Virus record (IMG/VR): IMGVR_UViG_2579778884_000014
Source: a virus
Lineage: Duplodnaviria > Heunggongvirae > Uroviricota > Caudoviricetes
Length of the DNA stretch: 41,415 nt
Reading direction: 5' to 3' (one strand)
How positions within the stretch are numbered: the stretch's first letter is position 1; each line of letters begins with the position of its first letter. Below are positions 1-39,349 of this stretch, piece after piece. The notes below the pieces were generated by a model. It saw only the letters and a program-made list of their open reading frames with translations. It searched no databases and was not told where the DNA came from. The position numbers and the translations under genes were made by a program.

Positions 1-555
1 TCATTTATCTCCGACCGGAAACCTCTTATACAAAGTCGATATGCCAACATCATAGATGATCGCCACCTTCTGGCGAGGAACTCCTGATGCAATTAATCGT
101 CCGGCCTGTGCCCATTGTTCTGGTGTAAGTTTGGGACGTCGTCCACCAATTCGTCCCTGTGCGCGAGCAGCTTCCAGGCCAGCTTTTGTTCGTTCAACAA
201 TCAGTTCTCGTTCCATTTCAGCCAGGGCACCCATCACATGAAAGAAAAAACGCCCCATCGGTGTGCTGGTATCAATAGCATCCGTCAGGCTGCGAAAATT
301 AACGCCACGTTCGCGCAACTCCTCAACCAGAATGACCAGATGCCGCATACTACGCCCCAGCCGATCCAGCTTCCAGACAACCAGAGTGTCACCTGCCGAT
401 AATGTCCTGAGCAGTTTTTTCAGTCCCGGCCTTTCGGACTTTGTACCGCTTATTTTGTCTTCAAAAATCAGCTCGCATCCTGCACAGTTCAGCGCATTAC
501 GTTGTAGATCTGTGTTCTGGTCATTTGTTGACACACGTACATAGCCAATAAGCAT
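1..555 (-). CDS. pin: Serine DNA invertase (Pin/Gin/Hin/Cin family)
   Basis: Minus-strand ORF ending at the window edge; translation from the internal ATG (MLIGYVRVSTNDQNTDLQRNAL...) matches the canonical N-terminus of Pin/Gin-type invertases. ATG at 555 has a GGGAGA Shine-Dalgarno, the upstream ATG at 591 does not. Lies beside an inverted-repeat-bounded tail-fibre segment. Confidence 0.9.
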   Translation of the reverse strand: MLIGYVRVSTNDQNTDLQRNALNCAGCELIFEDKISGTKSERPGLKKLLRTLSAGDTLVVWKLDRLGRSMRHLVILVEELRERGVNFRSLTDAIDTSTPMGRFFFHVMGALAEMERELIVERTKAGLEAARAQGRIGGRRPKLTPEQWAQAGRLIASGVPRQKVAIIYDVGISTLYKRFPVGDK

Positions 556-22113: not shown

Positions 22114-22686
22114 TTAGCCCATCATTTTTCTATACGCCTCTGCAGCCTGCTCCGGCGTTAAGTTGGTAATTTCTGTTCTGACTGGTCCTCCATCAGCGCC
22201 AGTCACTTCATTTTTGACGTTGTCTTTAAACGCCTGAACAGAAACATGACGCCCAAGCAACTCAAGGTTTTTAACCTTATCAGGCCACTTAATCTTTTTA
22301 AGGATCCCGACCATTTCTCTGTCATCTCCTCGCCCCTCAAACATTTCAGCGAGGTTAAATCCACTCAGGTACCGACGCCACGATTCCGGCCACGCAGACA
22401 GAGGCTTAATACTTAAATCGTCCTCCAGGATGTCAGCCACATCGAGCCTGTCGATCTCAACCAGTCGCATCAGCACATAATTCGCATCAATGCCCAGTTG
22501 ATCAATACGCTCCTGCTTTAGCTCGTTGATGCGGGCGCGTATCTCAGGTTTACCGTATAGTTCAGCCCCCGTAACATGTGCTCGCCTGGAGGCGTAGCCT
22601 GCGCGAATAGCTGCTTGTGTAGCATTCAGATCGACAAGAAACTCGCGACAAAACACCTCGTGTTTTGCTTTCAGCTTCTTAGTCAT
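22114..22686 (-). CDS. Terminase small subunit (P27-like family)
   Basis: 190 aa; N-terminal ...[25 protein letters not shown]... matches the P27-type small terminase signature as I recall it. Confidence 0.7.
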
Positions 22687-24474: not shown

Positions 24475-24816
24475 TTATCTTACCTTGATGCCTGATGCCG
24501 TCAGATGTTTACGACAGTCCTGAATACCTTCGTTATAACCCGCATCGTAGAAGCTATCCGGCTTTGCCTTCAGCGCAGGAAGCGTAACGCTGGTAGCTCT
24601 TCGTTCGGCCAGAACACCTGCCTGAAAGAGTGTCCACATCAACTGAACTGCTGAATCACAGTAAGTAACATCTTCACTGTACAATTCTCGTTCAATCCTG
24701 ATGCCAAGTTGAGCCTTCATTGATGCGCTAATATTACCTTTGACCTGCAACGACAGGTCTGGGTACCTCTGTTCCATGAAGCTTTCAAATCTGTTGCGAA
24801 CGCTGATCAGAGCCAT
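24475..24816 (-). CDS. Hypothetical protein in the Q-to-lysis slot
   Basis: 113 aa ORF 31 nt downstream of Q with an AAGGGA Shine-Dalgarno; no recognisable motif. Confidence 0.55.
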   Translation of the reverse strand: MALISVRNRFESFMEQRYPDLSLQVKGNISASMKAQLGIRIERELYSEDVTYCDSAVQLMWTLFQAGVLAERRATSVTLPALKAKPDSFYDAGYNEGIQDCRKHLTASGIKVR

Positions 24817-24847
24817 CTGGTTCCCTTACGTGATTGATTGCTGGATA

Positions 24848-25270
24848 TTATGCCGCCGAGCAGCTCCTACGCAAAGTCCTGATAGCCTGAGGCTTTGACT
24901 GAACCGACTGATCCATTTCGAGCACCACATCCAGCATGGCTAAGCAACCGTCAATAAATCCCTCTGCCGCCTGAAGCCTCTTCAGAACGTGGGTGTGAGA
25001 TACGCCGAGCTTCTCACCCATCGCCCGCACGGGCATGGCCTGGACGTAATGCCACTCAAGGAGCGTGCACAGATACGGATCTTTTTTCTTCAGGCAGCTC
25101 ATAGCGGAGTTGATGATAAGACCGTCATTGTCACTGCATTTCAGCCTTCCAGACTGCGTCGCGGGTAGCAGATTCTTAAACCCGGCTGCAACAGGAGGAA
25201 AGTAGACACTACCACCTTCACTCGCTGCCCAGCCACCCCAGCGCTCTAAAACCTGTTGAATATTACGCAT
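24848..25270 (-). CDS. Late-gene antiterminator Q (phage 82/21-type)
   Basis: 140 aa; N-terminus MRNIQQVLERWGGWAA... matches the Q-family signature (MR.IQ.VLERWG.WAA) as recalled; lies upstream of the lysis cassette. Confidence 0.8.
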   Translation of the reverse strand: MRNIQQVLERWGGWAASEGGSVYFPPVAAGFKNLLPATQSGRLKCSDNDGLIINSAMSCLKKKDPYLCTLLEWHYVQAMPVRAMGEKLGVSHTHVLKRLQAAEGFIDGCLAMLDVVLEMDQSVQSKPQAIRTLRRSCSAA

Positions 25271-25323
25271 AGCTCTGACCTCTACGTTTTGCTACGAAAA
25301 AATTTTCTGAGAACCACGTTTGT

Positions 25324-25344
25324 TTATCCGTGGGTGTGGATAAC
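25324..25344. promoter_or_regulatory. DnaA-box-like palindrome
   Basis: TGTGGATAA at 25335..25343 is a perfect DnaA box on the opposite strand; with TTATCC at 25324..25329 it forms GTTATCC-n8-GGATAAC. Confidence 0.35.
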
Positions 25345-25400
25345 GCAGTTCCGATTCGCTTATTACACGCTGTTATGTGCAAAAAATTCCTTGTTCGGCC

Positions 25401-25580
25401 TGTACCAACCTGTACCCACCTGTACCAGCTCTTTTCAAACCTTTTCCCCAAGCGACTTATATATATATATGGGGTTCTTAGTAATTAGGTTGGTACAGAT
25501 GGTACAGTTGGTACTGGCCTTTAAATTCAATTAGTTAAAATGTACCAACCTCTATTTTGAGGTTGGTACAGGTTGGGACA
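25401..25580. repeat. Iteron array with AT-rich spacer (putative replication origin)
   Basis: Three direct TGTACC(A/C)ACC-type copies (25401..25430), a (TA)n tract (25459..25470), three inverted copies (25488..25518), a perfect palindrome TGTACCAACCTC-TATTTT-GAGGTTGGTACA (25541..25570) overlapping the primase stop codon, and a degenerate GGTTGGGACA copy. Confidence 0.6.
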
Positions 25581-27744
25581 CCGCCTCAAAAATTCGAGTC
25601 ATTTTCCCCCCAATTCGCCTTTGGGCACGCTTATACCCGCAATTTTGCAAAACATTACTAATTCGCATTTCTTCGCGTTTTCCGATGCGGTCAGGATTTA
25701 GCCCAATCGCATCACGCAAAACATCACTTGCGCGTAAAAATTCGCAATTTCGCGGAAGTTCATTAGTCATCAGGTCTGGCGTGTCGAGCCATTTCTCTAC
25801 CGTTTCAAGCCAAGCATCCTTGATGGTGTACTGTTCATGGACACTCGCTGCCAGTTGTTCAGCCTCACGGAACTGGATACCCCCCAGACGCTGAAACACC
25901 TCACGAGCCTCAGCCCAAAGTAAAAGGAGATCTCTTTTTATCGCTTTCACGTCGACTTTCGACACTTCCACGGGGAGCCAGCGACGGTTACCAGTCTTGT
26001 CCGCAAGGAATTCGTCCTCATTGGTGGTACCAACGAACACCAGGCGACGAGGAAACTGGGTGGCGAACTCCCGGTATTTCGGGATCCAGTTTTCGTGAGT
26101 ACGCGTCACAAACGCTTTGATTGACTCCAGCTCTTTGGTATTAAGTCCGCGCAGTTCACCAATCTCTGCCACCAGCCGACCACGCATTTTTCGAGCGAGA
26201 TCATCGTCTTTTTCGGCAAAAGAGATTTCAGTAAAAAACGCAGGATCAGGGCTCAGTGCCTCCACTCCGGAAGACTTACCGCAGCCCTGCGGACCAACGA
26301 GGATCGGCACCATATCCGCTTTGATGCCTGGCTCCAGTACTCGCCCCGCCAACGCGGTCCACATGTACATAGACACCGCACGGGTATAAGGCGTGTCGGC
26401 GGTACCGAAGTGCGTATGGTAGAAACATTCGATGCGCGGCACGCCATCCCACTCCAGTCCGTTCAGCCAAGTGATCGCTGAATCGAATGGTTGTTCATCG
26501 GCTGCAAGTAACACCACATCGCGAATAAGTTCACGACCAACAGGTTTAAATCCCCGCTTTTCCATCGTGATGCGCAGGCGCGCATAATCCGCATCGGTGA
26601 ATGCCCGCCATTGTCCGGATCCTGCAGGGGCAAACATGATTTCGTCGCGGAACTGGTCAAAGCGAATATCGATGTCCACAAAATCAGGGCGTACTACTGC
26701 TTTGGCTGCGTTGCTGATTGTTGCCTCGATACGCCCCCATTTATCACGCTCGAAAGCAGGCAGCGGTAAAGGTTCCGCCACTTCGGTGCTGGTCAGATCT
26801 TCGAAATCGTCGTTGCGGATCCCGATGGCATTAAGGAAATCTCCGTCATCACGATGCGCACAACTGGCATGCAGGCATTTAAAATGCCCCTGCTCAAAGC
26901 CCGCGGTTCCCGCAGGAAAATAAACTGTGCTTGTTGGATCGCCCCCGCTACTGTGGCCGTCTTCAAACGGACAGCGGATATATCGTTCACCATTTGCGCC
27001 ATCCAGCAGCGTCCAGCCATTGGCATCAAGATATTCAGCTGTATCATCCGTCGCGCCGGGCGTGAATGCTGATCGGTCGCGCATCTTCGTGTTGCCCGCT
27101 TCGGTGGTTACCGACACAGGGAGTTGTTCAGCCAGGCGCTGCCACAGCGTTTCAAGCTGCTCACCAGTAATAGCCGGAGGTTCATCCGGCAAACCGCCGT
27201 CCCATTCAATACGCGCGCCGCTGCTGTGCGTACCGCAGGCAACGAACTGCTGCCCGTTCGCCAGCAACTCGATAATGCCCATATCCCCCGCCAGGCGATG
27301 GATACGCTTACGGAAATCACCATCAACGGCCAGCAGATACAGACACTTATTACTGTTTGCTCGCCAGCGTCGCGGCGGCAACTCACCCAGAAGTTGCACA
27401 AGCGTTTTGCGAATATCTGCCTGAATGTCTTCATCTTCGCTATCACAGTCCAGCGCCAGCCAGCCATGGCCTGTACGCACGCAGATGCCATAATCCGGTT
27501 CATTCGACCAGCGGGCAAAATCATGCTCAGTAACAACATGCCCGGTCCATTGAGCAATACCGGTGACCTGGCGGTCCCGGTTATAGCGACTCGGCGTCTT
27601 ACCCAACGCTTTCAGTTTACTATCAGGGGATATGGTCGCACTGGGGTTACATACAACTGGGAGAAGATGATCAGTTCTCCCCAATACCAGGTCGAAATGA
27701 AACCACTCATCAGGCGTAGCTCCCCATGGTTTGCTATCGGACAT
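25552..27744 (-). CDS. DNA primase-helicase (Prim-Pol-like N-terminus, VirE/D5-like P-loop C-terminus)
   Basis: 730 aa; Walker A ...VGPQGCGKSS..., Walker B-like ...RLVFVGTTNE..., cysteine/histidine cluster (CPFEDGH...CLHASCAH) typical of primase zinc-binding regions. Confidence 0.8.
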   Translation of the reverse strand: MSDSKPWGATPDEWFHFDLVLGRTDHLLPVVCNPSATISPDSKLKALGKTPSRYNRDRQVTGIAQWTGHVVTEHDFARWSNEPDYGICVRTGHGWLALDCDSEDEDIQADIRKTLVQLLGELPPRRWRANSNKCLYLLAVDGDFRKRIHRLAGDMGIIELLANGQQFVACGTHSSGARIEWDGGLPDEPPAITGEQLETLWQRLAEQLPVSVTTEAGNTKMRDRSAFTPGATDDTAEYLDANGWTLLDGANGERYIRCPFEDGHSSGGDPTSTVYFPAGTAGFEQGHFKCLHASCAHRDDGDFLNAIGIRNDDFEDLTSTEVAEPLPLPAFERDKWGRIEATISNAAKAVVRPDFVDIDIRFDQFRDEIMFAPAGSGQWRAFTDADYARLRITMEKRGFKPVGRELIRDVVLLAADEQPFDSAITWLNGLEWDGVPRIECFYHTHFGTADTPYTRAVSMYMWTALAGRVLEPGIKADMVPILVGPQGCGKSSGVEALSPDPAFFTEISFAEKDDDLARKMRGRLVAEIGELRGLNTKELESIKAFVTRTHENWIPKYREFATQFPRRLVFVGTTNEDEFLADKTGNRRWLPVEVSKVDVKAIKRDLLLLWAEAREVFQRLGGIQFREAEQLAASVHEQYTIKDAWLETVEKWLDTPDLMTNELPRNCEFLRASDVLRDAIGLNPDRIGKREEMRISNVLQNCGYKRAQRRIGGKMTRIFEAVSQPVPTSK

Positions 27745-27747
27745 GGG

Positions 27748-27960
27748 TTAAGCCTTTTTATCGTTTTGTGAGCCATACAACAGCCAATTAGGGTCGCAAT
27801 CCAATGCTATAGACATTTCAAGAAGATAACGTGGCCGAGCAATAACACCACTTTCAATTCTGTTTATTGCCTGCTGGCTCACTCCTGTGAGCTCAGCCAA
27901 CGTAACTTGCGTCATTTTGAGTTCTTTACGTCGTTCTTTTACTCGGGTCGCTAAGGTCAT
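27748..27960 (-). CDS. Cro-like HTH regulator
   Basis: 70 aa from the ATG at 27960 (GAGGTG Shine-Dalgarno; track start at 27978 is a TTG). HTH ...MTQVTLAELTGVSQQAINRIESG...; divergent from the CI-like gene and heading the leftward operon. Confidence 0.7.
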   Translation of the reverse strand: MTLATRVKERRKELKMTQVTLAELTGVSQQAINRIESGVIARPRYLLEMSIALDCDPNWLLYGSQNDKKA

Positions 27961-28080
27961 TGCTTTCACCTCATACAATTTTAGTGGTATTTAGCAACAA
28001 CAAACGAGGTTTGTCAAATACAACAAAAATTGTTTTTAATGTGGGGATACACATTAATACAACCCAGAAGGACTAATCCC
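27961..28080. promoter_or_regulatory. Immunity switch region: divergent promoters and dyad operators
   Basis: Dyads ACAAAC-GAG-GTTTGT (28000..28014) and AACAA-AAA-TTGTT (28022..28034); back-to-back -35 hexamers (TTGACA on minus / TTGTCA on plus at 28011..28017); plus-strand -10-like TTTAAT at 28035..28040. Confidence 0.5.
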
Positions 28081-29337: not shown

Positions 29338-29487
29338 ATGAAACCTGAACACATCCATCGACTGACGGGGCGCGATGTTCTCCGTTATCGCCGTAAAAAC
29401 TTCGATTTGATGACCGGTCTGGCCGTTGCCACTGCGCTCGGTCTGATCATCACTTTCATTCTCCTTGTAGCGAGGACCACAGTATGA
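29338..29487 (+). CDS. Small single-pass membrane protein
   Basis: 49 aa from the ATG with an AAGGAA Shine-Dalgarno (track ORF starts earlier at a GTG); hydrophobic C-terminal segment LAVATALGLIITFILLV; first gene of the plus-strand operon. Confidence 0.4.
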   Translation: MKPEHIHRLTGRDVLRYRRKNFDLMTGLAVATALGLIITFILLVARTTV

Positions 29488-30386
29488 GTTTAGAAACCAG
29501 TCTAGAACTTAATAATCAACTTCTGGCACAACATAATGCGCTGCTTGAACGTCTTATCCGCACAATGGCATCAGGCATTGTTATGCATCCTGACACGATT
29601 TCACGAGTGCAGGAATGTCGGGATACAGCAACTGAAACTGAAAATATGTCAGCGGCAATGACACTGGATGATCTGGAGTTCAGCGACGTTATCGCACTGG
29701 CTGGTTTCTACCCGGTAGCCACCCCTATCACAGAAGACATGCTGCAACGTGCTGTTGCCTACCGTGATGCTGAAGGCGATAAACGAGTTGTTCAGATTGA
29801 TGCTCTCGACAGCGCATTGCAGGGCGTCAAACGAGCCAGGGCGCTGCTTAAACCTGCTCTCCTGGACCTGTCCCGTAACATCCTTAAGTTCTGGGACGAC
29901 CTGCCAACCATCGGCGAGCGACGTGCTTTTGCCGAGCAGCTACTTGATGCACCTGCAGATGGGCGTGATGAAGTTAAGCCGAAAAAGGCCAGTAACAAAG
30001 ATGGAGAACGCACGGGGCCGTTTTACGTCAAAAATGTATCCGGCACAGCAGCCAGTGAACTCCATACCTTACGCAAGTTGAACGAGATGCTTAAAAAAGG
30101 CCATATCGAGATCAACCGTGTTGAGTACCTTCAGCTGCAGGAAGAATTTGCACGCAGAGACGCAGCAAATTCCAGCCAGAATAATGACGCCAAAGATGAC
30201 CATACAATTGATTTCGCGGCACTACGCAAACAAGCTGAAGGGTTGATCCTCCAGTTAGCAAAAGGGGGTTACCGGGCAGAAGCTATTGCAATTCTGGAAA
30301 AACAGGGAGCCAGGAAACTTGGTGAAGTAACGGATGAAAATCTCGCTGAAGTAATCACCCTGGCTGAAAAAGCACTGGAGGGTTAA
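29484..30386 (+). CDS. Hypothetical protein
   Basis: 300 aa ORF translationally coupled (ATGA overlap) to the preceding small gene; no motif recognised. Confidence 0.6.
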
Positions 30387-30388
30387 TC

Positions 30389-31690
30389 ATGCCAGACGTT
30401 CATGCACAACTTTCTCCATCATCAGCGCATCGATGGATGCGCTGCCCAGGAAGTCTGGCGCTGGAGGCCACACAACCGGATAAAGAAACAACTTTTGCAA
30501 TCGAGGGCACTGCAGCGCATGCACTTGCCGAAAAGGTGCTGCGCAACCGCCAGAGCCACCCGGAGCACTATGCAGGTTGCAACGTCGCGATGTTCCTTGG
30601 ATCCTATCCTCTTGCTGAGCACCCGGATGATACTTCCGGCCCGCAGGTAGATGAGGAAATGGTCGAAGCCGTTGGTCGTTACGTCGACACTGTTTGGGCG
30701 CTGGCGCAGGGCAATGAGCTGCTGGTCGAGCAGCGTGTCGACTTCTCCCATATAACGGGTGTGGAAGAATCTTTCGGAACTGCCGACAGCATAATCATTG
30801 CTGGTAGCGAATTACAAATCCACGACCTGAAATATGGCAAAGGCGTCCGCATTGATGCAGAACAAAATGAGCAACTACAACTGTATGCTCTGGGTGCGCT
30901 CGAACAATTCAGCATGCTGTATGACTTTGAGACTGTAAGATTATTTATTCACCAGCCGCGGCTTAACCACGTTTCAGAGTGGGCTCTGACGGTGGAAGAG
31001 CTCCAGGCGTTCGGTGAACGGGCACAGGAGGCCGCAACCAGTGCGATCCTTGTTCTCAATATTGCTGAATGCGAAGGCATTGAGACACTACCGCTGGAAA
31101 ACTTCATACCTGGAGAAAAACAGTGCCGCTTCTGTAAAGCAAAAGCTATTTGCACTGCCCAGAAAATGCAGCATTTACAAACAGCGGCCAGCGACTTTGA
31201 AGATCTGACAAAGCCTGTCAGCGAAATAATCACCAATGCCAGCGCACGTGTACCTCTGTTAACCATTGAGCAGCTTGCGGAGATCTATAGCCAGACCGAC
31301 TTTATTGAGTCCTGGCTAAAGGCAGTACGGGACCGGGTTCACAATGAACTCAATGCCGGACATCCGGTACCGGGGTTTAAACTGGTAACAGGAAAACAAG
31401 GTAACCGGGCCTGGAGTGATGAAGAGGCAGCTCGCGCACTTCTGAAGGACCAGTTCAGGTACAAAACTGAAGAAGTATTCGACTTTAAACTTATTAGTCC
31501 CACAAAAGCCGAAAAACTTATCAAAAAGGCCAGTCCGCGCCGTTGGTCAAAAGTCGAGGCACTGATAACACGAGCTGATGGTAAACCCACCGTCGTTCCC
31601 GAGTCAGACCCACGCCCCGCACTCAATATCAACCCTGTAAATGATTTCGACGACGTATCCGACGATACGCTAACCGCAGACCTCATCTGA
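30389..31690 (+). CDS. PD-(D/E)XK nuclease, Cas4/RecB-like (DUF2800-type)
   Basis: 433 aa; N-terminal ...[14 protein letters not shown]... and C-terminal cysteine cluster ...[10 protein letters not shown]... as in Cas4-like Fe-S nucleases; precedes an SSB-like gene and a family A polymerase. Confidence 0.7.
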
Positions 31691-31705
31691 TTTAAGGAAA
31701 TCCCC

Positions 31706-32254
31706 ATGAAACTGAAGCTGAACAATGTTCGTCTGGCCTTCCCGTCTCTGTTTGAAGCTAAAACTGTAAACGGCGAAGGCGATCCGCGTTTCTCCGCAGT
31801 ATTTTTAATGTCTCCCAAACACCCACAACTGGAAGAAATCCGTAAAGCTATGAAGCAGGTAGCGAAGGAAAAATGGGGGGAGAAGTGGGAGTCCATTTAT
31901 AACCAGCTGGAGAAAAAACTCAATCTGTGCCTGCATGATGGTGATGAAAAAGCAGAGTATGAAGGCTTTCCCGGCAATTTCTTCCTGAACGCTGCTAACA
32001 AAGCGCGCCCAGCTGTTCTTGATCGCGATCGTTCGCCACTAATTCAGGCTGATGGACGTCCCTATGCAGGGTGCTATGTAAACGCCGTTATCGATATCTG
32101 GGCACAGGACAATAATTTCGGTAAACGCATTAATGCCTCACTCGGCGGAGTCCAGTTCCTGCGAGACGGCGATGCATTCGCTGGCGGCGGAGTGGCAAGC
32201 GCTGACGATTTCGACGATATCAGCGAAGGTGCTGATGCTGAAGCACTAATTTAA
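31706..32254 (+). CDS. ssDNA-binding protein-like (DUF2815-type)
   Basis: 182 aa with an acidic C-terminal tail ...DDFDDISEGADAEALI typical of SSB partner-interaction tails. Confidence 0.6.
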   Translation: MKLKLNNVRLAFPSLFEAKTVNGEGDPRFSAVFLMSPKHPQLEEIRKAMKQVAKEKWGEKWESIYNQLEKKLNLCLHDGDEKAEYEGFPGNFFLNAANKARPAVLDRDRSPLIQADGRPYAGCYVNAVIDIWAQDNNFGKRINASLGGVQFLRDGDAFAGGGVASADDFDDISEGADAEALI

Positions 32255-32290
32255 AAATATTCATCCCCCAGCTGCGTGCTGGGGGATCTC

Positions 32291-32944
32291 ATGAGGGAAA
32301 GAATAATGTCACAGCCCGTATTAACTAATTACCTTAAAACTCAAATCATCAATAACGCACTTGAGAAAGCGGGTATCCCCAAACGTAAATCAGCACTACG
32401 AGCTGCTCGTGTTGAATGGGCCGAACGTGTTCGGCTTGCAGCTATCGGGGGCGTAGAGAAAGAAGCTGAAATATTAAAAAATATAAAAAAAATAGAAACA
32501 CTGGTATCAAAATTCCCCGAAGCATTAAAAACCGCCAATAACATTATCAGGGAAGAGTGTTACATGTGTCTGAATCTGGCAGGTTCTCGGGTTACCGTCT
32601 ATTTCAACGGTAACTACCGAGGATATGAATCAGGGTCACCAGACCATATTCACAAAATCGCGCCGGGGGAATTTACCCTTCTGGCAAATGACCCTCTAGT
32701 TACAGAGTTTTACGGGTTTGATACACTTTATGAGCAGATACAGAGCGATGAGTCAGACATTCGACAGAATGTCAGCGCTGCACTCAGTAAAGTGCGCACA
32801 GTTAAGCGCCTGCTGGAAGAGTGGCCTGAAGCTAAAGAACTTCTGCCAGCCGATGCACCATCTGCTCCGCTTCCGCCAGCTATACGACGCGAAACTCTCA
32901 ACGAAATGATCGGCCTCCCTTCTGACGAAGGGGTAGATGCTTAA
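32291..32944 (+). CDS. Hypothetical protein
   Basis: Track ORF starts at a GTG at 32276 inside a GC-rich hairpin; the ATG at 32291 (GGGGGA Shine-Dalgarno) or 32306 is more plausible. Confidence 0.5.
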   Translation: MRERIMSQPVLTNYLKTQIINNALEKAGIPKRKSALRAARVEWAERVRLAAIGGVEKEAEILKNIKKIETLVSKFPEALKTANNIIREECYMCLNLAGSRVTVYFNGNYRGYESGSPDHIHKIAPGEFTLLANDPLVTEFYGFDTLYEQIQSDESDIRQNVSAALSKVRTVKRLLEEWPEAKELLPADAPSAPLPPAIRRETLNEMIGLPSDEGVDA

Positions 32945-33011
32945 TATTTCTTATAACAAAGGCTGGCTTAAGAAAATAGTTATCCAAACCAGCCTACCGC
33001 AATACTAAAAA

Positions 33012-33281
33012 TTAAAATTCATTGAATTTAAAAAGACATTTCCCTATTGGATTGCCATAGTCTCTACATACCGAAATGCTGTCCCATACAGGCTGAGCCA
33101 AACACCCAAGAAAGAACCCAATAAGCGCAAAAATTATAATTTTGGGAAGAACACGATCCTTAGGACCTTCTTCACGTTCGAGCCATGCGCCACCAGCCCG
33201 AACTATTCTCCCTAAAATATAAAGAATGGGGAAAGCAATAATACCTATCAATGAAAGTATTCCGATACCAAAGCTAAACAC
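33012..33281 (-). CDS. Small two-helix membrane protein, antisense insertion
   Basis: 89 aa from a GTG start with a strong AAGGAGA Shine-Dalgarno; two hydrophobic helices; AT-rich island on the strand opposite the surrounding operon. Confidence 0.65.
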   Translation of the reverse strand: MFSFGIGILSLIGIIAFPILYILGRIVRAGGAWLEREEGPKDRVLPKIIIFALIGFFLGCLAQPVWDSISVCRDYGNPIGKCLFKFNEF

Positions 33282-33337
33282 CGCCGTCTCCTTGTTTATT
33301 TACACCTACATAACCATATATCACACAAGGTTATTTT

Positions 33338-35401
33338 ATGTCCAATATACTATGGGGTGACCTAGAAACCTATTGCGAAATCCCTATTACGAACGGTACC
33401 CATGCGTATGCCGAAGGCGTTGAAGTGATGCTGTTCGCATGGGCTATCAACGACGAGCCCGTAAACGTGTGGGATATCACTGCCGGTGGTGGTATTCCAC
33501 ACGGCTTATACGAAGCAATCGCAGCCCCTGAAACCCTGCTTTATTTTCATAACTCTCACTTCGACCGCACCGTCCTGCGTTATGCAATGCCGCGCCTGGC
33601 ACCGCCAGTCGAACGTTGGCGCGACACAATGGTGCAGGCGCTGGCGCACGGTCTCCCGGGGTCTCTGGGGGAACTCTGCGAAGTACTAGGCGTCCCGCAA
33701 GACAAAGCGAAGGACAAAGAAGGTAAAGCGCTGATCCAGCTGTTCTGTAAGCCACGCCCGAAAAACAGCAAACTGCGCCGGGCCACCAGCAAAACCCACC
33801 CGGAAGAATGGCGGCGCTTTGTTGCTTACGCCGGACTGGATATCGAGGCAATGCGCGAAGTCTATAAACGTCTGCCGAAGTGGAATTATCAGGGGACAGA
33901 ACTGGCGCTCTGGCATCGTGATCAGCAGATCAACGACCGGGGCGTCTGCATGGACATTCAACTCGCGCGCGCTGCGATCGAAGCGGTAGACCAGGAGCAA
34001 AAGCGCCTGGCAAAGCGTACACAGGAAATGACTGATGGCGAAGTGCAGGCAGCAACACAACGGGACGCGTTGATTAAGCACATCGTTGAATCCTACGGTG
34101 TGGAGCTACCAGACATGCAACGCAGTACTCTGGAACGTCGTATAGCCGACCCCGATTTACCATCTGCCGTGAAAGAACTGCTGGCTATCCGCCTGCAGGC
34201 CAGTACTACCAGCACCAGTAAATACAAGGCACTGATGAAAGGCGTAAGCCACGACGGGCGCTTACGCGGTACGCTACAGTTCTGCGGGGCGTCACGTACC
34301 GGTCGTTGGGCCGGACGGCTATTCCAGCCCCAGAACCTTCCCCGCCCTTCACTAAAACAGGAACAAATAGACGAAGGCATCGAAGCACTGAAAGCCGGAT
34401 GTGCAGACCTGCTGTTTGACAATATCATGGAACTAACCAGTTCAGCGTTACGTGGCTGCATTATCGCGCCAACAGGCAAAAAACTGGTGGTAAGTGACTT
34501 GTCGAACATTGAAGGCCGTATGCTGGCATGGCTGGCGGGAGAAGAATGGAAACTGAATGCATTCAGAGAGTACGACGCCGGAACGGGTCCGGACTTATAT
34601 AAACTGGCGTATGCAAAAGCTTTCGATATTGCACCAGATGATGTTGATAAACACATGCGTCAGATCGGTAAAGTCATGGAACTCGGTCTGGGTTATGGAG
34701 GTGGTGTATCGGCTTTCATCACTTTTGCTCTGGTTTACGGTCTCGATCTCGACGAGCTGGCGAACGCCGCACTGCCAAACATTCCCCGCGATGTTATCCG
34801 CGAGGCGAAAAGCTGGTACAACGAATCGGTTAAACGTAAGTCGACCTTTGGCCTGTCCGAGCGTGTATTCATCGCATGTGACTCGCTCAAGCGCCTGTGG
34901 CGCAGGGCGCACCCGGCGACCTGCGATTTCTGGTACGAACTGGAGCGCACCGTCCGCACTGCAATCGCCACACCGCAAAAAACATTGTATTGCGGTTATC
35001 TTAAAATCCGCCGCGATGGCGCGTGGCTGCGCATACAGCTACCATCCGGACGCGCTGTATGCTACCCCTCTCCGGTTATCGAAAAAGGGAATATCACCTA
35101 TATGGGTGTTAACTCTTATTCGCGTAAATGGCAACGACTCAAAACCTACGGCGGAAAGCTGGTAGAGAACGTCACCCAGGCGGCCGCCCGCGACGTTCTG
35201 GCCGGAAACATGCCGCTTATCGAAGATGCCGGTTACAGCATTGTGCTGACGGTACACGACGAGGTGATCACCGAAGCACCTGACACAGAAGATTTCAACG
35301 ATAAAGCGCTTTCCGCGCTTCTCTCCACTAACCCCGAATGGGCGCCCGATATCCCACTGAACGCTGGCGGTTTTGAGGCGTACCACTACCGTAAGGATTA
35401 A
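33338..35401 (+). CDS. DNA polymerase, family A, with 3-prime-5-prime exonuclease domain
   Basis: 687 aa; exo motif ...GDLETY..., polymerase motif A-like ...[18 protein letters not shown]..., motif B-like ...[16 protein letters not shown]..., motif C ...[12 protein letters not shown]... Confidence 0.85.
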
Positions 35402-35406
35402 TCGCT

Positions 35407-35610
35407 ATGACTGTAATCAAAACGCATACCGGAACGGTTATTACCCGCACCGGTGAAAAGCAGGTGCAATTGCATCAAAACGCGACAACGTGGGTGGCTG
35501 GCCCAAAAGAGTATTACTACAAAGACACTGGCCGCCGCGGTGGTGCTGTCGGTGTCCGCACTCGTCTGGTGCTGAGCAGCATCCGCCCAATCGAAGCAAA
35601 GCAGGAGTAA
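35407..35610 (+). CDS. Hypothetical small protein
   Basis: 67 aa ORF directly after the polymerase gene. Confidence 0.4.
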   Translation: MTVIKTHTGTVITRTGEKQVQLHQNATTWVAGPKEYYYKDTGRRGGAVGVRTRLVLSSIRPIEAKQE

Positions 35611-35615
35611 CCCCT

Positions 35616-35837
35616 ATGTCATTTAAATATCGGGACAGTCCGCTTTATTACCGGGCTGCGAGGGAGGCCTTGCGCCTTGAGCAGTCCGGCGAATATGACC
35701 GGGCAGCGAAGGTCTGGGCCAAGGCTAACCGCCAGTCACGTAACGAACTGAATCAGGACTGGAGCGAACGCCGGTCTGATTTTTGTCTGATGCAGAACAT
35801 GCGCGAAAAGCGTAAGGCGGTGAGCGATGACTTGTGA
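35616..35837 (+). CDS. Hypothetical small protein
   Basis: 73 aa from the ATG at 35616 with an AGGAG Shine-Dalgarno 8 nt upstream; the track ORF extends upstream without support. Confidence 0.45.
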   Translation: MSFKYRDSPLYYRAAREALRLEQSGEYDRAAKVWAKANRQSRNELNQDWSERRSDFCLMQNMREKRKAVSDDL

Positions 35838-36309
35838 GCAGACCATTCTTGACATGTGCTGCGGCTCTCGTATGTTTTGGTTCGACAAGGAGGACAAGCG
35901 CGCCGTGTTCAGTGATATCCGCGCCGAGCAGCATGAGCTTTGCGACGGTCGCCAGTTGGTTATAAGTCCGGACCTTATAGCTGATTTCCGCGCCCTTCCC
36001 TTTGCCGATAACACTTTCCCTGTCGTCGTTTTCGATCCGCCGCACCTCGAGCGCGTCGGCGATAACGCATGGATGAGGAAAAAGTACGGGCGGCTCAACA
36101 AAGAAACATGGCGCGATGATCTTCGCGACGGCTTCGCCGAAGCATTCAGGGTATTGCGGCCCCACGGTGTACTCATATTCAAATGGAACGAAACGCAGAT
36201 CCCGGTAAGCAATATCTTGGCGCTGACCGACGAGAAGCCGGCCATATGGCAACGAACCGGAAAAGCCGACAAAACCCACTGGGTTATTTTCGTCAAAGGT
36301 GTGGAATGA
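35827..36309 (+). CDS. Small DNA methyltransferase (phage Dam-like, DPPH motif)
   Basis: 160 aa; SAM-binding motif I-like ...ILDMCCGSRMFW... and catalytic motif IV ...VVVFDPPH... Confidence 0.65.
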   Translation: MTCEQTILDMCCGSRMFWFDKEDKRAVFSDIRAEQHELCDGRQLVISPDLIADFRALPFADNTFPVVVFDPPHLERVGDNAWMRKKYGRLNKETWRDDLRDGFAEAFRVLRPHGVLIFKWNETQIPVSNILALTDEKPAIWQRTGKADKTHWVIFVKGVE

Positions 36310-36602
36310 TGGCCTACGAACGTGAAAGCCTTATCGAAAAGCACCTCGTCGCCGAAGTGAAAAAGGCTGGCGGGGTCGCCTTTAAGTTCGTGTCACCCGG
36401 TCGCCGCTCGGTACCGGATCGCATTGTCCTGCTACCCGGCGGTCGCATCGTCTTTGTCGAATGCAAAGCGCCAAGCAAACCACCACGGCCTGACCAGTTA
36501 CGCGAGCACGAACGGCTGCGCGCGTTGGGCTTTACCGTGGTGGTATTAGATAGCAAAAATCTGGAGGGGATATTGTGCGGGGAGCCTATTACAACGAAAT
36601 AG
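36306..36602 (+). CDS. VRR-NUC domain nuclease
   Basis: 98 aa from an ATGATG start overlapping the upstream stop; ...VSPGRRSVPDRIVLLPGGRIVFVECKAPSKPPRPDQLREHERL... fits the VRR-NUC core. Confidence 0.7.
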   Translation: MMAYERESLIEKHLVAEVKKAGGVAFKFVSPGRRSVPDRIVLLPGGRIVFVECKAPSKPPRPDQLREHERLRALGFTVVVLDSKNLEGILCGEPITTK

Positions 36603-37603
36603 ACCCTAACGCAGCACAATGGCTGCGTAACCTTATTGCTGCAGGTCATATCGCCCCGGGTGAAGTTGATGAAAGGAGTATCGAAGATGTCGCACCAGAC
36701 GACTTGCGCGGATTCACACAGTGCCATTTCTTCGCCGGGATCGGCGTCTGGTCTTATGCTCTGCGTCTGGCCGGATGGCCGGATAACAAACCGGTCTGGA
36801 CAGGAAGTTGCCCGTGCCAGCCTTTCAGCTCGGCTGGTAAAGGCGCTGGGTTTGATGACGAGCGGCACCTATGGCCAGCACTATTCCACCTCATCAGCGA
36901 GCGACGCCCTAAGCTGGTATTTGGCGAACAGGTTGCGGGAGTCAATGCCTGGTTCGATCTTGTACAAACTGACGTGGAAGCAGTGGACTACGCCTTTGGG
37001 CTTGTCCCGTTTCCGGCTGCGGGCGTCGGTGCCCCGCATATCCGAGATAGAGCGTATTGGGTGGCCGACGCCAGCGGCGAGCGATCACAGCGGTGGCGAA
37101 AGCGCCTCAATAGCATTGAGGAAGATGTCTGGAGATCGTCGACCGTCCGGCAACACGCTACACAGCTCCCTGCGGAATTTTGCTCACCTAGCGGGGTGGT
37201 ACACCCCAACCTGCAACACAAACCCACAGCCGGAGACAAAACGCGGTCTAGAAACCTTAGCGGGACTATCCAGATTAGCGGGATGGCCGACAGTGACGAC
37301 GATCGACAACAACCAAGTTCGTGCCGAGGGCGCAGCGGCCAATCATACCGAACGGGGAACGACCCTCGGCGGCGCTGCGAGAATCTGCGGCCCAATACGA
37401 TTAACGGCTGCTGGGATGGTGCTGACTGGCTCCTCTGCCGGGATGGTCGCTGGCGGCCAGTTGAATCCGGCACATGCCCGTTGGCTAATGGGATTACCTC
37501 CAGAGTGGGACGACTGCGCGCCTACGGCAACGCGATAGTCGCACCAGCTGCCGCAACATTCATCCGCTCGTTTATGGAATGCGCAGGATACGACCTTATT
37601 TAA
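36575..37603 (+). CDS. DNA (cytosine-5)-methyltransferase, reading frame uncertain in the middle
   Basis: GTG start with GGAGGGG Shine-Dalgarno; motif I ...FFAGIG..., motif IV ...PCQPFS..., motif VI-like ...GEQV..., motif VIII-like ...HIRDRAYWV..., motif X ...YGNAIVAP.... The overlapping ORF 36636..37538 also looks coding. Confidence 0.7.
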
Positions 37604-37920
37604 TGCCACTCACATCTGGCATGATACCGTCCAGAAGGTAATTGCTTATATACAACGGAGCCGCCCATGGCATAAGTATAAGCATGAAGTTTTGTCCAGA
37701 AGTCCCCATAAACTAGTATTGGGGCTAAAAATTTTGGATCGCTAACCATAGATGTAGCAGGAAGCTCGAAACCTTTAGAAAGAATGTTTACCAGTGAAGG
37801 GTAATTTTCAAAATCAGTGCTATTCCCGCCCACCTCTAAAGCATCCAGTTCAAAGTCGAGCACTCCACCATTTTTGTAATACTCCGGAACAGTTAACCCT
37901 GATGTTAACAAAGTAGCCAT
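37600..37920 (-). CDS. Hypothetical protein, antisense insertion
   Basis: 106 aa with a perfect AGGAGG Shine-Dalgarno 8 nt upstream of the ATG; AT-rich island; convergent with the C5-methyltransferase, 4 nt 3-prime overlap. Confidence 0.6.
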   Translation of the reverse strand: MATLLTSGLTVPEYYKNGGVLDFELDALEVGGNSTDFENYPSLVNILSKGFELPATSMVSDPKFLAPILVYGDFWTKLHAYTYAMGGSVVYKQLPSGRYHARCEWH

Positions 37921-37954
37921 TAAACAATCCTCCTGAATTTTAAAGGGTTACATT

Positions 37955-39349
37955 ATGCCCAAAGTTTTCACGCCTCGCCCCTACCAAGATCTAATTATCA
38001 ACCACGAAATCGACATTCACCGCTGCAACATCTGGGCAGGGATGGGGATGGGTAAAACCGTAGCGACACTCACCACGCTGGAAGATCTTTTCATGGCGGG
38101 CTCAGAGACACAGCCCGCGCTGGTCCTCGCGCCCCTACGCGTTGCAGCAAGCACATGGCCGGATGAAGCGCTGAAATGGGGGCATCTGCGCAATATCGAG
38201 GTGCAGCCGATTGTTGGTAACGCCAAAGCACGCTCTGCAGCGCTGGCGAACAGCAACGCGAGCGTGTTCACCATCAACTACGATAACCTTGTCTGGCTGG
38301 TTGAGGAATTGGGAGAACGATGGCCGTTCGGTACTGTCATTCCAGATGAAAGCACCCGGCTAAAATCCTTCCGGCTGCGAGGTGGTGGTAAGCGCGCGGC
38401 GGCGCTGGGCAAAGTGGCGCATAAGTATGTCCAGCGCTGGATAAATCTCACCGGTACGCCAGCACCGAACGGCCTGGTAGATTTGTGGGGACAATTGTGG
38501 TTTGTGGACCAGGGGCAACGTCTCGGGCGCACTTACGGCGCGTTTACCTCACGCTGGTTCAACTCGATACAGTTTCCGGGGCAGAGCTGGACCAAACTGG
38601 AGCCGTTTGCTCACTCACATGCTGAAATACAGCGAGCGTTAGCCGATGTGACCCTCTCGCTGGATGCGGCCGACTGGTTCGATATCAAAGACCCCATCCA
38701 TAACGTAATCCGCGTGGATATGCCGCCGAAGGCCCGTCAGCAGTATCGTGAAATGGAAAAGGAAATGTTCCTCGAGCTGAACGGCGAAGGCATCGAAGCA
38801 CCAAACGCCGCGGCAAAGACACTGAAGTGTCTGCAAATCGCCAGTGGCGCAGTATACACAGACGACACCGGAAGTTGGTCAGAACTGCATGACACCAAAC
38901 TACAAGCGCTGGACAGCATACTGACCGAAGCAGCTGGCGCACCTGTGCTGGTTGCTTATCACTGGAAACACGATCTTGAACGCTTGCTTAAAGCATTCCC
39001 TCGCGGTCGTCACCTCGACCAAGATCCACAGACACTGCGCGACTGGAATTCCGGAAAGATTCCTGTTCTCTTTGCACACCCAGCCAGCGCGGGCCACGGT
39101 CTGAACATGCAGGACGGCGGAAACATACTGGTATTTTTCTCACACTGGTGGGACCTGGAGCAGTATCAGCAAATTATTGAACGTATCGGCCCCACCAGGC
39201 AGATACAGGCCGGACACAATCGTCCGGTATTTATTCACCACATTATTGCGGCCGACACTATGGACGAAATGGTGATGGAGCGGCGCAACTCAAAACGAAC
39301 AGTGCAGGACATCCTGCTCGATGCCATGAAAAAGAGAGGTATAGCATGA
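37955..39349 (+). CDS. SNF2-family helicase
   Basis: 464 aa; Walker A ...GMGMGKT..., DExx-type ...VIPDESTR..., motif III ...LTGTP..., C-terminal helicase motifs ...HGLNMQDGG... and ...ERIGP... Confidence 0.85.
   Translation: MPKVFTPRPYQDLIINHEIDIHRCNIWAGMGMGKTVATLTTLEDLFMAGSETQPALVLAPLRVAASTWPDEALKWGHLRNIEVQPIVGNAKARSAALANSNASVFTINYDNLVWLVEELGERWPFGTVIPDESTRLKSFRLRGGGKRAAALGKVAHKYVQRWINLTGTPAPNGLVDLWGQLWFVDQGQRLGRTYGAFTSRWFNSIQFPGQSWTKLEPFAHSHAEIQRALADVTLSLDAADWFDIKDPIHNVIRVDMPPKARQQYREMEKEMFLELNGEGIEAPNAAAKTLKCLQIASGAVYTDDTGSWSELHDTKLQALDSILTEAAGAPVLVAYHWKHDLERLLKAFPRGRHLDQDPQTLRDWNSGKIPVLFAHPASAGHGLNMQDGGNILVFFSHWWDLEQYQQIIERIGPTRQIQAGHNRPVFIHHIIAADTMDEMVMERRNSKRTVQDILLDAMKKRGIA

Follow-up and report, generated by a model that had tools for sequence, protein, structure and literature searches.

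The window analysed here is a stretch of DNA of 41,415 nucleotides from a prophage in E. coli; it is 100% identical to strain BH100N, where the prophage is integrated beside yfhL/shoB. Our subject is an intergenic region of 281 bp (25271-25551), bounded on one side by the gene for a 730-aa protein with a VapE domain (25552..27744, minus strand) and on the other by a Q antiterminator gene (24848-25270, minus strand; Pfam Phage_antitermQ, E 5e-42), which is a neighbour and not a conserved partner of the repeat array described below. Along the minus strand, a cro-like HTH gene (27748-27978, minus strand) lies upstream of the VapE-domain gene and is followed by that gene, the intergenic region, Q, and then the lysis and terminase genes. 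The early right operon contains only the cro-like HTH gene, the VapE primase-helicase gene and Q. A second replication module occupies 29484-39349 on the plus strand, divergent from the cro-primase operon, and includes genes for DUF2800 and DUF2815 proteins, a putative nucleotide-modification protein of the Nmad5 family, PolA, two methyltransferases, a VRR-NUC protein and an SNF2 helicase. The cI/LexA-like repressor gene is divergent too and is transcribed together with this second module. Since there are two divergent replication modules, the replication genes are split over both early operons. Just downstream of the cI-like gene, the segment 28750-28849 has a G+C content of 0.27, the minimum of the region examined. 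Apart from a GC minimum of 0.33 at 25450-25549, profiles of GC skew and composition showed no inflection that was informative. No sigma-70 promoter was found in 24700-25800, and a scan of 25000-25900 for known RNA families returned only a meaningless match to c4-a1b1 (E 0.25, 16 bits against a threshold of 46.7 bits). Three short open reading frames run through the intergenic region (25256-25534, plus strand; 25263-25451, minus strand; 25330-25488, plus strand), and because RefSeq annotates none of them they are treated as spurious.

The region and the adjoining end of the VapE-domain gene carry an array of short repeats. Allowing up to two mismatches, TGTACCAACC has 28 matches in the 41.4-kb window, nine of them within 25401-25580, and the four exact copies in the window all belong to this nine-copy array. 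The copies lie at 25401, 25411, 25421 and 25541 on the plus strand and at 25488, 25497, 25506, 25561 and 25571 on the minus strand. From the rate outside the array, 0.083 sites per 180 bp would be expected where nine are observed (Poisson P ~4e-16), and the maximum per 180-bp span in 200 first-order Markov simulations was only 2-4 sites. No other repeat array of comparable multiplicity was found in the window. In gene sense, the layout consists of two direct copies and one inverted copy, a spacer of 25 bp, three direct copies, a core of 57 bp and three inverted copies. Iterons 1 and 2 (25561..25580, minus strand; TGTCCCAACC and TGTACCAACC) are direct repeats with 10-bp phasing inside the 3' end of the gene. 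The inverted iteron 3 (25541..25550, plus strand) pairs with iteron 2 to give a palindrome (25541-25570) over the stop codon of the primase gene. The first AT-rich spacer (25516..25540, 25 bp, 76% A+T) has an equivalent in relatives and leads to the direct iterons 4-6 (25488..25515, minus strand), whose 9-bp phasing makes neighbours overlap by one base and is also kept in relatives. Facing them are the inverted iterons 7-9 (25401..25430, plus strand), phased at 10 bp. The conserved core between the two facing sets (25431..25487, 57 bp) is 68% A+T, against 49% for the window, and reads AACCCCAT-(TA)6-AAGTCG...GGGGAAAAGGTT on the minus strand. Past the last iteron set lies a further motif, AATTTTTTGCA (25378..25388, minus strand; TGCAAAAAATT on the plus strand). 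An earlier note, made from the letters of the window, had described at least eight copies of a 10-bp motif, a perfect 12-6-12 palindrome at the primase stop codon and a (TA)n/AT-rich stretch at 25457..25472. The array is real, although its copies number nine and not eight; the palindrome is confirmed (arms 25541-25552 and 25559-25570, stop codon 25552-25554 inside), as is the AT-rich stretch, with (TA)6 at 25458-25469 or, equivalently, TTATATATATATAT at 25457-25470.

The 730-aa protein encoded beside the array combines domains with recognisable relatives and a C-terminal part that is visible only in a structural model. Pfam assigns VapE to residues 427-639 (E 2.3e-60), and the N-terminus is a Prim-Pol domain (PF09250, E 1.8e-10 when residues 1-321 were scanned alone). 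The sole match of a phmmer search against the PDB was the DNA-bound Rep of SaPI1 (7pds_A, E 8e-34), and Foldseek gave 7pds as its top match as well (E 4.7e-15), with ~460 aligned columns that take in nearly the whole length of 7PDS; it also matched the prim-pol domains of pRN1 (1rni, E 8e-5) and NrS-1. By the Pfam, phmmer and Foldseek matches, the protein is an SF3 (VapE/D5-like) helicase. The full-length AF2 model is of mediocre confidence (pLDDT 65.6), and its C-terminus, at pLDDT 80-90, consists of helices 641-653, 672-680 and 689-701 followed by strands 704-711 and 714-721. This topology of three helices and a beta-hairpin is predicted to be a winged-helix domain (residues 640-721), for which no sequence match was found in Pfam (E <= 10) or, with a profile of 18 C-terminal domains, in the PDB. 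In the model, the second strand of the predicted wing corresponds to the variable residues 715-721. Within the protein, differences between iteron types are confined to codons 715-730 (MTRIFEAVSQPVPTSK; 25555..25602, minus strand), which encode this strand and the tail, and the last nine of these codons coincide with iterons 1-2. The predicted recognition helix, REEMRISNVLQNCGY, is constant in Enterobacterales. Some relatives match over part of the length: L015-L019, L023, L028 and the APSE phages match only residues ~312-730 (helicase and winged helix) and have a different N-terminus, and L024, L025 and L027 match only residues 1-321 (Prim-Pol). These partial matches point to domain shuffling at about residues 312-325.

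Scans of genome and viral collections yielded 105 further loci, and the comparison set comprises ~95 loci with 79 distinct origin sequences. Six to eleven copies of a lineage-specific 9-10-mer, arranged as in the window, lie at or after the stop codon in 96 of 96 loci with an intact 3' end; among genome-derived entries, 22 of 23 carry such a set. The hosts include Trabulsiella, Pluralibacter, Pectobacterium, Xenorhabdus, Photorhabdus, Symbiopectobacterium, Gilliamella/Orbaceae and Burkholderiales MAGs, and the array is also present in the isolated phages APSE-1, Yersinia YeP4 and Caulobacter Jess A. Internal spacing is constant within ~2 bp, with relative starts of 0, 10, 31, 65, 74, 83, 151, 161 and 171 in the window and of 0, 10, 30, 66, 75, 84, 150, 159 and 169 in Sx181. 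The gene downstream of the array is not constant and differs in the Trabulsiella, Pluralibacter, Pectobacterium and Burkholderiales loci and in the Caulobacter phage. Whatever the iteron type, a tract of at least four TA units occupies the core position in 73 of the 79 distinct origin regions, and GGAAAGGTT is found in the core of 61 of them. A TTTGCA-type motif is present in 48 of the 79. A conserved motif, GTAATTT(T/A)TTGCA, occurs at 25378-25388 of the window and at the equivalent position in L002, L006-L008, L014, L102 and L104. Its range extends from E. coli as far as a Burkholderiales MAG, it shows no covariation with iteron type, and it is usually followed by an inverted repeat resembling TTGCA..N8-16..TGCAA (in O103, TTGCATG-TTGATA-CATGCAA). 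This motif belongs to the module, in which it could serve priming, bind a host factor or form part of a promoter.

Individual relatives depart from the common layout in several ways. The locus of E. coli OkiPb01688 (L004) has a 137-bp tandem duplication (alignment A1, columns ~221-357) that takes in the middle and last iteron sets and the (TA)n core, resulting in 12 iterons and two putative melting sites, and the arrays of L106, L107 and L028 are enlarged to 10-11 iterons, an extra upstream triplet included. The latter three loci indicate that the numbers of copies and of sets can vary, with the facing sets and the core retained. In E. coli STEC383 (L005, 3259-3280), the primase stop codon has changed from TAG to CAG, and the reading frame continues for seven more codons (…SKQRLVHFN) through the loop of the palindrome; the position of the stop relative to the array is shifted in other lineages too. 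In APSE-1 (L111, NC_000935, 3445-3666), the annotated hypothetical protein P4 falls entirely on the iteron/(TA)n array that comes after the P3 helicase, and it is probably not a gene. The location of the origin flags ORFs that are likely mis-annotated, P4 being an example.

Comparison of closely related prophages separates the constant parts of the region from a part that changes as a unit. E. coli genomes fall into two populations here, at least 95% and ~78% identical. The iterons are TGTACCAACC in the window and STEC383, TGGAACCACC in O103:H2 12009 and OkiPb01688, and TGTTACCACC in Sx181; in an alignment of the five genomes, all copies are altered alike within each lineage, and the spacers and the Q leader are conserved. 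The window and O103 are ~100% identical on the flanks and only 62-78% identical within 25348-25598, and their helicases are 98% identical and differ only past residue 714, where MTRIFEAVSQPVPTSK in the window corresponds to KCKVWEPLEPRGTT in O103 (alignment A2). Flanks of ~100% identity around divergence limited to 25348-25598 mean that a cassette of ~250 bp has been exchanged, the sole coding content of which is the helicase tail. Over ~95 loci, the iteron type tracks the five residues following a conserved G-K turn and not the overall identity of the helicase, an association to which co-inheritance alone would contribute to some extent, with tail codons and iterons ~50-250 bp apart and partly overlapping. 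Tails of the form [MV][TV]R[IV]FE (e.g. MTRIFE) occur with TGTACCAAC, and this holds for Xenorhabdus proteins that are 73-76% identical overall. The K[CS]K[VLI]WE tails (e.g. KCKVWE) occur with TGGAACCAC, LMKVW with TGTTACCAC, VLKVW with TGTATCCAC and MTKAW with TG(T/A)AGCCAC. Three minimal pairs sharpen the correspondence: KMRIF with TGTCCCAAC against KQRIW with TGTCCCCAC, QQRIF with CTAGACAAC against QIRVW with CTAGACCAC, and SQRVY with TGTAACAAC against VQRVW with TGTAACCAC. In all three, F or Y goes with A at iteron base 7 and W goes with C. By tail class, base 7 is A in four of four F/Y classes and C in seven of seven W classes, counts that are not fully independent given that the loci overlap in ancestry. 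Iteron bases C6, A8 and C9 are constant in Enterobacterales.

The boundaries of the exchanged cassette, the parallel switches between F and W and between A and C, and the analogy with SaPI Rep together argue that the helicase is the protein that binds the iterons. How far the correspondence amounts to a code is a matter on which we are evenly balanced: on the sequence comparison, the last wing strand may be a compact, swappable specificity cassette in which five residues (MTRIF, KCKVW, LMKVW) set three to four iteron bases, with a rule of F/Y for A and W for C at base 7, and in which tail and site move as one unit of ~250 bp, giving at least ten orthogonal replicon types in Enterobacterales. 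The overlap of iterons with tail codons means that protein and site would move together between otherwise identical phages. If this proposal is true, orthogonal replicon types could prevent prophages that share a host, or satellites, from starting replication at one another's origins.

A different reading starts from the palindrome over the stop codon, which would be an intrinsic terminator, the array then being mainly a gate on read-through from the early operon into Q and not a replication element. The hairpin at 25541-25570 (minus strand), followed by TTTTAACTAA, is the sole terminator-like site in 24700-25800; as RNA (then UUUUAACU) it folds at -27.2 kcal/mol with a z of -5.4, and it is placed between the early genes and Q. 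However, the T-run is lost even in close relatives with an identical Q gene (O103, ...GGTGGTTCCACCTTGCAGACC), and its equivalents in Xenorhabdus (CTTAAAGC) and Pectobacterium (CGTAAACG) confirm that it is not conserved. A terminator also leaves seven further copies, their fixed geometry and the conserved (TA)n core unexplained, and the array trails the helicase gene also where the next gene is not Q. We regard a gate on Q as very unlikely, with a secondary attenuating effect of the stop-codon hairpin possible in this phage. It is very unlikely that the repeats bind some protein other than the helicase, such as the small terminase (at a pac site), a partition or copy-control protein, CI/Cro or a host factor. 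Linkage could explain part of the correlation between tail and iteron, and Caulobacter phage Jess A has its array ~650 bp upstream of the gene for the small terminase, but in the window ~2.7 kb, with Q and the lysis genes, separate the array from that gene (22114-22686). A host factor would not require a lineage-specific, concerted change among prophages of E. coli, and the cassette swapped between near-identical phages holds no coding sequence beyond the helicase tail. Operators of CI and Cro are expected between cI and cro. The array was rejected as a set of such operators on the independent assortment of Cro clusters and iteron types: Cro cluster 0 is found with 10 tail types, the KCKVW type with five Cro clusters, and O103 and OkiPb have common iterons and different cro genes. 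The earlier note had kept a packaging site and sites for a regulator of Q as alternatives, both of which are unlikely for an array that follows the helicase gene whatever lies downstream.

The region could also be a DnaA-dependent origin, in which a box at 25335-25343 recruits host DnaA to cooperate with the iterons as in iteron plasmids. A single, perfect DnaA box, TGTGGATAA (TTATCCACA; 25335..25343, minus strand), is indeed present in the Q leader, 58 bp from the last iteron, and it is retained in 17 of the 79 distinct origin regions. All 17 are of one E. coli Q-leader type, though, and the box is absent from all other genera, is missing in 14 of 29 loci with an adjacent Q and has one mismatch in Sx181. 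Its presence in the window is at chance frequency, with one match to TTATNCACA against 1.06 expected. A conserved cluster of DnaA boxes beside the unwinding element was looked for, and only the single box was found. In addition, the homologous SaPI Reps are self-loading and act without an accessory loader (PMC9371898), and the phage has its own polymerase module. Dependence on DnaA is thus unlikely. The box itself was dismissed as a part of the origin on its chance expectation and missing conservation, and it probably lies outside the origin module.

We conclude that the segment of about 25378-25580 is very probably the lytic replication origin of the prophage, recognised by its own primase-helicase through the predicted C-terminal winged-helix domain. 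This reading is strongly supported by comparative evidence at the level of sequence: every informative relative has an array of the same geometry after its homologous gene, the iterons change in concert and track the C-terminal tail of the initiator, the (TA)n core is conserved, and the closest solved homologue, SaPI1 Rep, is a self-loading helicase with this origin design. The earlier note had seen iterons and an AT-rich element beside an initiator gene as an origin bound by the primase-helicase. That central idea is strongly supported by the comparison, but two of its elements are not: the DnaA box, and the assignment of repeat binding to the N-terminal domain, which is the Prim-Pol, the covarying, winged-helix-like part being the C-terminus (residues 640-721).

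A mechanism can be proposed on this basis. The initiator would bind the iterons via its C-terminal winged helix, with the conserved recognition helix reading the invariant iteron positions C6, A8 and C9 and the wing strand reading the variable positions 3-5 and 7. Protomers on the two facing triplets might then assemble into a pair of hexamers, opposite in orientation, around the (TA)6 core. This core at 25458-25469 is the proposed melting site, and it would melt without DnaA, DnaB or DnaC, as has been proposed for SaPI Reps. The fused Prim-Pol domain would prime, and the phage PolA together with the DUF2815 and DUF2800 proteins would extend. Rightward early transcription, from cro through the primase gene to Q, would cross the origin, as in lambda.

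These results place the likely lytic origin of a widespread and largely unstudied family of temperate phages, which takes in prophages of E. coli O103, O111 and UPEC, Yersinia YeP4-6, the Hamiltonella APSE phages of aphid symbionts and Caulobacter Rauchvirus-like phages. More than ten matched types of tail and iteron on a near-constant helicase scaffold form a data set for how the wing of a winged helix reads DNA, and the same matched series is usable for building orthogonal self-loading replicons. A search of the literature on VapE and iterons, on the APSE origin and on iterons of prophage primase-helicases returned only the analogues in SaPIs, PICIs, pRN1 and P4, and no description of the present origin.

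The design is already known from these analogues, each of which shares part of it. ORF904 of pRN1 contains a Prim-Pol domain, an SF3 helicase and a winged helix, and an essential cis region lies directly downstream of its gene (PMC2777425; PMC4234260); no iteron array or cognate binding site has been defined for ORF904 (PMC2777425). The domain order is that of the protein studied here, and the prim-pol domains match in fold (1rni, E 8e-5); the host of pRN1, however, is archaeal. The P4 alpha protein, as summarised in PMC2777425, unites in one polypeptide a primase, an SF3 helicase and, at the C-terminus, a winged-helix domain that binds the origin by reading short repeats. Our protein has the same three parts in one chain, the winged helix being predicted, and is likewise associated with short repeats, whereas the P4 primase is of the DnaG/toprim type and the present one is a Prim-Pol. 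P4 replication depends on ori and crr, two cis elements that lie apart. The window differs in having a single repeat cluster: no second, crr-like one was found, and the matches beyond 25401-25580 are all scattered single ones with one or two mismatches. The rightward early operon of lambda contains iterons and an AT-rich region, both of them transcribed from the early promoter, and among lambdoid phages the specificity types of iteron and initiator differ and the binding sites overlap the coding sequence of the initiator. The present phage resembles lambda in the placement of iterons and AT-rich region in the rightward early operon and in the overlap of sites with initiator codons. Unlike lambda, it has no O or P homologues here, the initiator itself being helicase and primase; its gene has the array at the 3' end and not in the middle, and the predicted DNA-binding module is C-terminal.

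The closest parallel is with the satellites. SaPI Reps are self-loading SF3 helicases that use a C-terminal winged helix to bind 6-12 iterons, placed directly downstream of rep (Qiao et al., PMC9371898), and SaPI origins have an AT-rich centre with at least two iterons per side in opposite orientation (PMC9371898). The PICIs of E. coli have the same origin design, which for the pri-rep-ori of EcCICFT073 was tested by plasmid maintenance (Fillol-Salom et al., PMC6092414), and their origin organisation was stated to be common to no other known bacterial replicon (PMC6092414). In SaPI5, the primase is fused to Rep (PMC9371898; PMC6092414). At the level of sequence, the window has every feature of this design. 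Its helicase is SF3 and VapE-like, with SaPI1 Rep as the only structure found by sequence and the best match in fold. The origin comes directly 3' of the initiator gene (array 25401-25580, stop codon 25552-25554), likewise in ~95 loci. Nine iterons are present, with sets 4-6 (minus strand) and 7-9 (plus strand) facing each other over an AT-rich core, and the specificity types vary between elements. The differences are equally clear: in place of a satellite island, this is a complete myovirus-like prophage of a temperate phage that carries a PolA module of its own; its iterons are 9-10 bp long, against 5-6 bp in SaPIs and PICIs; the array begins inside the coding sequence, so that iterons partly encode the tail of the protein; an extra inverted pair spans the stop codon; and there is a long conserved core outside the iterons, CCCCAT(TA)nAAG...GGAAAGGTT. 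What is new is therefore modest in kind, namely a full family of temperate phages with a PICI-type origin organisation and, also modestly, a specificity cassette that appears unusually compact and readable. An AT-rich centre between two sets of iterons, placed 3' of rep, would then be a design not confined to satellites.
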